NCBI RefSeq assembly: GCF_003334255.1
Contig: NZ_QOWU01000279.1
Source: Escherichia coli
GTDB taxonomy: Bacteria; Pseudomonadota; Gammaproteobacteria; Enterobacterales; Enterobacteriaceae
DNA length: 230 nt
Reading direction: 5' to 3' (one strand)
In this document: positions 1 to 230 of the stretch, piece by piece
Position numbering within the stretch: position 1 is the first letter of the stretch
Layout: each line of letters starts with the position of its first letter
Position numbers and translations under genes: made by a program
Notes under the pieces: model-generated
What the model was told of the DNA's origin: nothing
The model's database searches: none
Seen by the model: only the letters and a program-made list of their open reading frames with translations

Positions 1-230
1 CCTGGTGCAGTGGGGCCCGCAGGCCCACGGGGACCGGCTGGTGCAGCTGGTCCCAAAGGTGATGCAGGCCCGGCAGGCCCCGCAGGAAAGGATGGTACCG
101 CCGGAGCGGAAGGTAAGGCAGGTCCGGCAGGGCCACGAGGTGAAAGGGGACCAGCGGGGGCACAGGGTGTTCCGGGGCCGGTTGGTCCGGCAGGTCCTGC
201 GGGTAAAACGGGGCCACGAGGTTTGCAGGG
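1..230 (+). CDS. Internal fragment of a collagen-like triple-helix repeat protein (Gly-X-Y)n; 5' and 3' ends lie outside the window
   Basis: Frame 1 (codons from nt 1) has no stop codon and Gly (GGN) at codons 2,5,8,...,74 without a single break, plus a partial GG at 229-230. Of 25 triplets, 13 have Pro in X (GPA x8, GPR x3, GPK, GPV). All four + strand stop codons (60-62, 114-116, 141-143, 204-206) fall in frame 3. Frame 2 is also open but has no Gly periodicity. Codon positions 1 and 2 are almost entirely G/C while position 3 is mixed, which fits this frame. Confidence 0.82.
121..194 (+). repeat. Exact 11-nt direct repeat ggtccggcagg, copies at 121-131 and 184-194 (span covers both copies)
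   Basis: Read directly from the sequence; flanking bases differ on both sides (120 a vs 183 t; 132 g vs 195 t). Both copies are in frame and encode G-P-A-G. Confidence 0.9.
130..222 (+). repeat. Exact 12-nt direct repeat gggccacgaggt, copies at 130-141 and 211-222 (span covers both copies)
   Basis: Read directly from the sequence; flanking bases differ (129 a vs 210 g; 142 g vs 223 t). Both copies are in frame and encode G-P-R-G. A third G-P-R-G at 22-33 uses different codons (ggc cca cgg gga). Confidence 0.9.

Follow-up and report, generated by a model that had tools for sequence, protein, structure and literature searches.

Collagen-like proteins encoded by prophages of Escherichia coli have been described by Ghosh et al. 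(2012, PLoS One 7:e37872, PMC3368898), who read the EPcl-type proteins as phage side-tail fibres and whose classes include EPclC. Their experiments showed EPclA to be trimeric, with a true collagen triple helix and a melting temperature of 42 °C, and a trimeric triple helix has been established in this way only for the related EPclA and EPclB proteins of E. coli O157:H7 (PMC3368898). Codon usage, the G/C fraction at third codon positions (GC3) and breakpoints at the DNA level are left unanalysed in the same text, where the word “codon” occurs 0 times (PMC3368898). For phage lambda, 12 copies of the gpStf collar domain form a collar on the tail tip, from which 4 trimeric side fibres project (PMC12617516). 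Outside this group, Gly-X-Y repeats separate the antireceptor domains of Streptococcus thermophilus phages, as described by Duplessis and Moineau (2001; cited in PMC5601072).

The stretch of DNA analysed here, 230 nt long and below called the window, lies inside a side-tail-fibre gene that belongs to a lambda-like prophage of E. coli. In strain NCTC9112 (locus L002) it occupies nt 20001-20230 inside a 1,563-nt CDS (19035-20597) that RefSeq labels “prophage tail fiber N-terminal domain-containing protein”, and the prophage carrying this gene is lambda-like and adjoins ssrA. The gpJ gene ends at L002:18852 and is followed by the fibre gene and then by a DUF4376/PHROG-1141 tail-fibre gene (20614-21195), which we infer to be a fibre assembly or chaperone gene. 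Megablast finds the window unchanged (100% identity) in PhiR12_1, PhiR12_2, PhiR12_2_star and PhiR12_4, all temperate phages of E. coli, and with 98.6-99.6% identity in 4 further phages; in PhiR12_5 the similarity is limited to nt 1-179. PhiR12_1 is a complete lambda-type genome with int, N, cI, cro, O, P, Q, S, R, Rz and the genes from Nu1 to J. The window is present in 39 of 5,426 complete E. coli genomes and is chromosomal in all 39. A plasmid search with the window gave no match, and a literature search on the PhiR12 phages found no relevant paper.

The surroundings of the fibre gene have features of their own. Two genes downstream lies L002:21991-23073, annotated as “YadA C-terminal domain-containing protein”, and the whole-gene search also matched P-EibA/C/D/E phage fragments from ECOR-9. 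Because of the YadA-type gene and the P-Eib matches, the NCTC9112 prophage possibly belongs to the Eib type (immunoglobulin-binding autotransporter). The YadA-type gene is another internal compositional joint, with a residual GC3 of -0.23 to -0.36 in its first ~230 codons and a normal C-terminal anchor. Between the tail genes L and K there is a moron-like cluster (L002:9099-11111), partly on the opposite strand, that encodes a ClpP-like protease, an Arc-family repressor, YlcI/YnfO and an Ant antirepressor and has GC3 values of 0.40-0.50, compared with 0.66-0.70 in the surrounding tail genes. ISEc12 (istA/istB), an element of the IS21 family, occurs in both PhiR12_1 (L001:10793-13095) and NCTC9112 (L002:12179-14481), but not in the same tail gene: it interrupts the DUF4376 fibre-assembly gene in PhiR12_1, PhiR12_2, PhiR12_2_star and PhiR12_4, and tail assembly gene I in the NCTC9112 prophage. 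The records of these four phages are complete genomes, with K-12 or E. coli C given as the host, so that their side fibre may not be needed or may not be functional.

The encoded fibre protein is 520 residues long and is composed as follows:

aa 1-134: phage_tail_N domain (PfN, PF08400; Pfam, E = 2.4e-42)
aa 136-253 (L002:19440-19793): Col1, a Gly-X-Y run with a GDPGGPPG interruption (Pfam Collagen at 139-249)
aa 260-301: Phage_fiber_2 domain (Pf2; Pfam, E = 9e-16)
aa 312-428 (L002:19968-20318): Col2, 39 uninterrupted triplets, read directly
aa 429-520: C-terminal tip of 92 aa, with no match in Pfam or the PDB

The window (aa 323-398) falls within Col2, and just ~40 residues, rich in Ala and Glu, separate the PfN core from Col1. 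Pfam gave no match to PF06820 (PfC) anywhere in the 520-aa protein. With hmmscan the Pfam Collagen model was reported for Col1 at aa 139-249 only and the window's own Col2 block went unreported; since Pfam skips the longer, uninterrupted run of 39 triplets, domain annotation alone would under-call the region. Among PDB sequences Col2 (aa 308-426) aligns to collagen alpha chains (E = 1e-72 to 1e-74, including 3e-74); for aa 1-91 the match is the collar domain of Ur-lambda gpStf (PDB 9E7M/9MGH, E = 4.5e-29). In the PHROGs the whole protein goes to tail-fibre families (phrog_366, E = 5e-122) and aa 300-439 match PHROG 1806, “collagen like minor tail” (E = 2e-29), and NCBIfam returned sub-threshold matches only, to collagen-like adhesins. 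Exact 9- to 15-mers common to Col1 and Col2 are about double the number in synonymous shuffles (97 vs 46 9-mers, P < 0.001), which suggests that the two blocks are related by common descent or by gene conversion between the shafts. At 0.29 nm per residue the window encodes a shaft length of ~22 nm. By homology to EPclA and lambda Stf the fibre is probably trimeric and forms a triple helix, so that Col2 would be a collagen-like triple-helical shaft between the collar domain, at the N-terminus and bound to the tail, and the small tip at the C-terminus, the presumed receptor-binding part.

Comparison with the described systems places this object in a known kind, the EPclC-type collagen-like side tail fibres of lambdoid E. 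coli prophages. The EPclC protein ECED1_2081 of E. coli ED1a has an equal length of 520 aa and equal Col lengths of 118 and 117 aa. Shared with EPclC are the order PfN, Col, Pf2, Col and a non-PfC C-terminus, the GDPGGPPG in Col1, the preference for Pro at X and for Ala, Arg, Gln or Thr at Y, and the prophage location. The C-terminus shows no PfC (PF06820) homology, as in that class, in which a long PCoil is also often absent; nothing substantive differs, and the protein appears to be a member of the class. With EPclA and EPclB it has in common the PfN domain, the collagen-like shaft and the role as a prophage side fibre, but it lacks both their long PCoil coiled-coil and their PfC (PF06820) C-terminus. 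Two EPclB-like relatives (L012 and L013) carry the same Col2 and tip module as the fibre described here. With lambda gpStf it shares the homologous N-terminal collar domain (gpStf residues 1-94; PF08400), the Pf2 repeat and the gene position after J and before a fibre-assembly gene (whose chaperone function is our assignment), and presumably also the role, faster adsorption via a second receptor. The lambda Stf shafts are coiled-coil in the proximal part and gp37-like in the distal part and end in an OmpC-binding tip, whereas this fibre has two collagen-like segments as shafts and a C-terminal tip unrelated to lambda Stf. Judged from its sequence, the protein would work like Stf, with a distal part that is not that of lambda Stf. 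The S. thermophilus antireceptors likewise have Gly-X-Y repeats between the domains of a phage host-recognition protein, but they differ in phage group, host and protein family.

Alignment of the window with its relatives revealed repeats, length differences and mosaic joints, all given here on the + strand:

1-228 (+): frame-1 coding sequence, 76 residues, aa 323-398 of the 520-aa protein (translation, Gly register)
229-230 (+): first two bases of the next Gly codon (translation)
53-77 (+): copy 1 of direct repeat D1, coding for Gly-Pro-Ala-Gly, GCAGGYCCGGCAGG (repeat search; 80% identity to the reference copy, spacing 54)
70-123 (+): 54-nt length-polymorphic segment of 18 aa or 6 triplets (protein and DNA alignment; ends ambiguous within the repeat)
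107-131 (+): D1 copy 2, the reference copy, at the downstream end of the 54-nt deletion (repeat search)
~128-150 (+): mosaic joint of L022, beyond which the collagen end and the C-terminal tip are different (protein and DNA alignment)
179-203 (+): D1 copy 3, spacing 72 from copy 2 (repeat search, DNA alignment)

The 54-nt segment is present in the window and absent from L007, L012, L013 and L022, and in the DNA alignment the upstream end of this in-frame deletion lies within D1 copy 1. In L005 an in-frame deletion of 9 nt is found at ~nt 70-78, the same spot as the 54-nt indel, and both L005 and L011 switch to a different sequence from nt ~179, a mosaic joint at D1 copy 3. The first two D1 copies bracket the 54-nt indel and the third lies at the L005/L011 joint, which fits recombination between the Gly-Pro-Ala-Gly-coding repeats. 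In the whole-gene search similarity breaks at the J/stf junction in PhiR5_1 and P-EibA, inside Col1 in PhiR5_2 and PhiR12_3, and inside Col2 at the window start in GER2. In PhiR12_5 and PhiR5_1 the DUF4376 gene downstream was matched in one uninterrupted piece. Furthermore, the N-terminal halves to which the Col2 and tip module is attached are of two unrelated kinds: the PfN of EPclC and a 228-aa form with PfN and coiled-coil. The repeated Gly-Pro-Ala-Gly-coding DNA would in this case be a substrate for unequal or homologous recombination, which would shift the shaft length by multiples of 9 nt and swap distal ends between phages. In the S. thermophilus phages the Gly-X-Y repeats reportedly flank the host-range region VR2 and have been proposed as recombination sites there.

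The window has a GC content of 70.9% (163/230 on a recount of the 230 nt), which is very unevenly distributed over the frame-1 codon positions, with GC1 at 0.89, GC2 at 0.82 and GC3 at 40.8% (31/76); positions 1 and 2 together (130/152) differ from position 3 with a Fisher p of 1e-11. Gly occupies each third residue of frame 1 without interruption (25/25), giving a collagen-like Gly-X-Y sequence with Pro at X in 13 and Ala at Y in 12 of the 25 triplets and Pro at Y in 1/25. Gly, Pro and Ala account for 56 of the 76 codons (74%), codon positions 1 and 2 stand at 86% GC, and by synonymous choice the peptide could be encoded at anything from 55.7 to 91.2% GC. It is the dominance of Gly, Pro and Ala codons in the peptide, and not a GC-rich genome, that brings the window to 71% GC. 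The most used codons are GGT for Gly (13/25), GCA for Ala (10/16) and CCG for Pro (6/15); Lys is AAA in 2 of 4 cases, both Glu codons are GAA, both Asp codons are GAT, and Arg is encoded by CGG once, CGA twice and AGG once, with no CGT or CGC. Every count in the preliminary description of this DNA (GC 163/230, GC3 31/76, codon usage) was reproduced exactly.

In locus L002 the host genes (n = 19) have a GC of 0.509 and a GC3 of 0.544, the phage genes (n = 18) a GC of 0.543 and a GC3 of 0.600, and the three Gly-X-Y runs (with Col1 split at the interruption) a GC of 0.69-0.73 and a GC3 of 0.42-0.53. Since only the Gly-X-Y blocks are GC-rich and the flanks are at 51-54%, the GC richness is local and peptide-driven. 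The same logic was surveyed in 80 related loci from viral contigs, which contain 32 distinct collagen blocks. In these blocks GC3 follows the background GC (r = 0.82), GC1+2 is 0.63-0.85, and the block GC exceeds the background by 0.167 on average; a GC3 of 0.41 back-predicts a background GC of 0.47 +/- 0.05. The free third positions (41% GC) would accordingly reflect a moderate-GC gene pool.

The codon usage of the window was compared with that of the neighbouring genes by a CAI-like index, which was built from the 19 local host genes and is therefore a weaker reference than one from highly expressed genes. By this index the window scores 0.624 and the host genes 0.717 +/- 0.052, and the window peptide scores 0.743 +/- 0.036 when recoded with host usage (P = 0.0007) and 0.693 +/- 0.040 when recoded with phage usage (P = 0.04). 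Over the collagen blocks codon usage differs from that of the 19 host genes for Ala and Gly (p = 1e-4 each) and more weakly for Pro (p = 0.03). The fibre gene is thus compositionally atypical for its host, also when the amino-acid sequence is controlled for. Over both collagen blocks CGY makes up 1/10 Arg codons (P = 0.004), compared with 56% in the prophage pool, and a search of the 54-kb PhiR12_1 genome for tRNA genes that might serve the rare Arg codons showed that the phage encodes no tRNAs.

What the preliminary description had inferred from the letters alone was borne out by these comparisons. It had attributed the GC richness to the amino acids and not to the genome, and the flanks, at 50.9% (host) and 54.3% (phage) GC with none near 70%, agree. 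It had proposed a moderate-GC host, loosely Enterobacteriaceae-like, and the host is E. coli; the resemblance in codon usage is indeed only loose, as GGT and CCG fit but GCA (62% vs 24% in the host) and GGC (12% vs 39%) do not. The suggestion of a horizontally acquired or phage gene was right as well, the gene being that of a prophage tail fibre with a host-referenced index of 0.624 against the 0.743 +/- 0.036 expected, although the argument drawn from rare Arg codons is weak on the 4 codons of the window (P = 0.037 against prophage usage) and holds once both collagen blocks are counted. GC3, which the description had taken as a direct read-out of the genome, lies significantly below what the neighbouring phage genes predict, a property of the distal fibre module.

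This deficit was quantified by drawing codons for the window peptide from the neighbouring phage genes, which gave 46.8 +/- 4.1 expected G/C-ending codons against the 31 observed (P ~5e-5), and from the host genes, which gave 39.1 +/- 4.3 (P = 0.04); the expected GC3 varies with the flanking genes chosen as reference, prophage regions being compositionally patchy. The A-ending codons GCA, CCA and GGA are in excess and C-ending codons are depleted. Avoidance of homopolymers was rejected as a cause, the window having 7 G/C runs of at least 4, compared with 5.2 expected from phage usage and 2.5 from host usage. Within the window there was also no sign of synonymous diversification that would suppress repeats, or of recent tandem duplication, repeated 9- and 12-mers being as frequent as in shuffles.

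It is clear from the distribution over the whole gene that the signature is not a property of the window alone. In PfN GC3 is 0.68, like in J, K, L and M, and there is no excess of A at the third position. GC3 then falls to 0.50 in Col1, 0.47 in the Pf2 linker, 0.42 in Col2 and 0.50 in the C-terminal tip, with third-position A at about twice the expected level in each of these four parts. The residual GC3 has its best change-point at codon 144, where PfN meets Col1 (t = 5.1). By codon ~490 the A-ending signature has faded, and the following gene lacks it. Since the A excess is found in all four distal parts and not in PfN, it is a signature of the distal fibre unit and not of Gly-X-Y coding. 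Codon ~144 is not exactly where other phages have their megablast breakpoints, which lie at codons ~176-192 in Col1. Taken together, composition and breakpoints make module exchange the best reading of the codon signature: the distal fibre, from Col1 to the tip (aa ~140-500), would be a mosaic module that circulates on its own, carries a synonymous signature of its own and is attached to the conserved collar domain at the PfN/Col1 boundary or close to it.

An alternative is selection specific to collagen coding, where the wobble positions of Gly-X-Y codons move toward A/T and offset the GC forced at positions 1 and 2, the proposed gain being a less stable mRNA or DNA structure, a smaller number of slippery G/C runs, or fewer recombinogenic repeats. 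The collagen blocks of this gene are indeed low in GC3 relative to phage usage (z = -2.6 and -4.8), the predicted mRNA folding energy is -114 kcal/mol against -138 +/- 7 kcal/mol after recoding with prophage usage, and an unrelated fibre (L075/L080) shows a dip in GC3 confined to collagen (z = -7 to -10). But the excess of A-ending codons is equally large in the non-collagen Pf2 linker and tip, EPclA-type genes lack a contrast between collagen and other parts, and within genes that contrast is inconsistent (9/16 clusters negative, Wilcoxon p = 0.18). Nor are the proposed gains visible, as G/C runs of at least 4 are not avoided, the arrangement of codons leaves the folding energy unchanged compared with own-codon synonymous shuffles (z = 0.39), and repeated k-mers are not reduced by it (P = 0.3-0.4). 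We therefore regard this explanation as unlikely, and over the 16 independent clusters from the 80 viral loci a general GC3 compensation specific to collagen was rejected for want of a consistent effect. Col2 is the most extreme block, with GC3 at 0.42 and z = -2.2 even against host usage, and there may be a small collagen-specific contribution here.

The fibre of L075 and L080 is 662 aa long and encoded at L075:9869-11857 and L080:1441-3429 on a background of ~48% GC. Its collagen blocks have a GC3 of 0.31-0.33 with 51-53% A-ending codons (the z of -7 to -10 being relative to its flanks), the non-collagen N-terminal part being normal. This is the strongest collagen-specific wobble shift within the survey.

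Rare codons (CGA, CGG, AGG, GCA, GGA) could also have been selected to slow the translation of the shaft for triple-helix registration. In line with this, rare Arg codons exceed the prophage norm, as given above, the adaptation index referred to the host is low, and no phage tRNA genes compensate. The signature, however, extends over the non-collagen parts, the collagen blocks of EPclA-type genes have no special bias compared with the rest of these genes, and prophage genes in general use 44% non-CGY Arg codons, which makes this reading quite improbable; neither selection for slow decoding nor for weaker mRNA structure is favoured. Even less can be expected from codon context, the idea being that GGN after every Y and CCN or GCN after Gly would by themselves yield GCA, GGT and rare Arg codons. 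In a pool of 90,558 codons from filtered prophage ORFs, usage before Gly does differ strongly from that in other contexts (chi-square p ~1e-20 to 1e-22), but the effect is the opposite one, GCC (0.44) and CCC (0.36) being preferred before Gly and the CGY fraction remaining unchanged (0.57), and a context-aware expectation of 44.8/75 GC3 against 30 observed (z = -3.6) leaves the deficit standing, so that codon context is a very unlikely cause.

An origin of the segment in a high-GC organism or a recent high-GC donor, which would make the GC richness genomic, has the overall GC of 71% in its favour and has next to no chance of being correct. It is already refuted by the flanking sequence at 51-54% GC, and it is likewise contradicted by the GC3 of 41%, by the 100% identity to E. 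coli phages and prophages, and by related fibres on truly high-GC backgrounds, in which collagen GC3 is 0.57-0.77. Finally, an animal collagen cDNA or contaminant is excluded. Although the best PDB matches of Col2 are collagen chains, alpha-1(I) and alpha-2(I) (E = 1e-72 to 1e-74), the window is part of a contiguous phage gene and matches E. coli phages and prophages at 100% identity. Pro stands at Y in 1/25 triplets, which is the bacterial and viral and not the animal pattern (PMC3368898).

Five of the 6 frames of the window are open, but with a probability of ~0.19 per frame of lacking a stop at the base composition of the window, open antisense frames are to be expected from that composition, and the Gly periodicity and the match to the annotated gene are found in frame +1 alone. 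For structured RNA on either strand the best Rfam score was 14.6 bits (E = 0.69), compared with a gathering score of 36.

Collectively, the observed identity, genomic context, architecture, composition statistics, change-point, indel ends and breakpoints point with good confidence to a trimeric Stf-type (EPclC) side fibre of a lambda-like phage, in which the GC richness is a by-product of the peptide, the distal part is a mosaic module with its own codon signature, and recombination is mediated by repeats. In terms of fibre biology nothing here is new in kind, and the preliminary observation was correct but ordinary. The sole addition to what is known is the A-ending, rare-Arg signature of the distal module with its sharp start at the collar/shaft boundary; the EPclA genes, by comparison, have a uniform GC3 of ~0.55 across their domains without an internal compositional break. 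That this abrupt start, in a module shared by unrelated N-terminal halves, is general and marks exchangeable host-range cassettes, or else reflects slow decoding, is a speculation to which we assign a rather low probability. If it were true and general, such change-points would be a sequence-only marker of host-range cassettes in prophage fibres, or alternatively would point to selection for a slow decoding that lets the chains of the trimer come into register during translation of the shaft.

The window may further serve as a calibration case, since a fragment of 230 nt could, on its GC of 71%, be mistaken for DNA of a high-GC organism, and the contrast between GC1+2 and GC3 correctly recovers a host near 50% GC. 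For the phages themselves, prophage side fibres of this class have an effect on which hosts temperate phages, Stx phages among them, can infect, and the collagen-coding repeats are sites of fibre-length change and of swapping of the distal, presumably receptor-binding ends.
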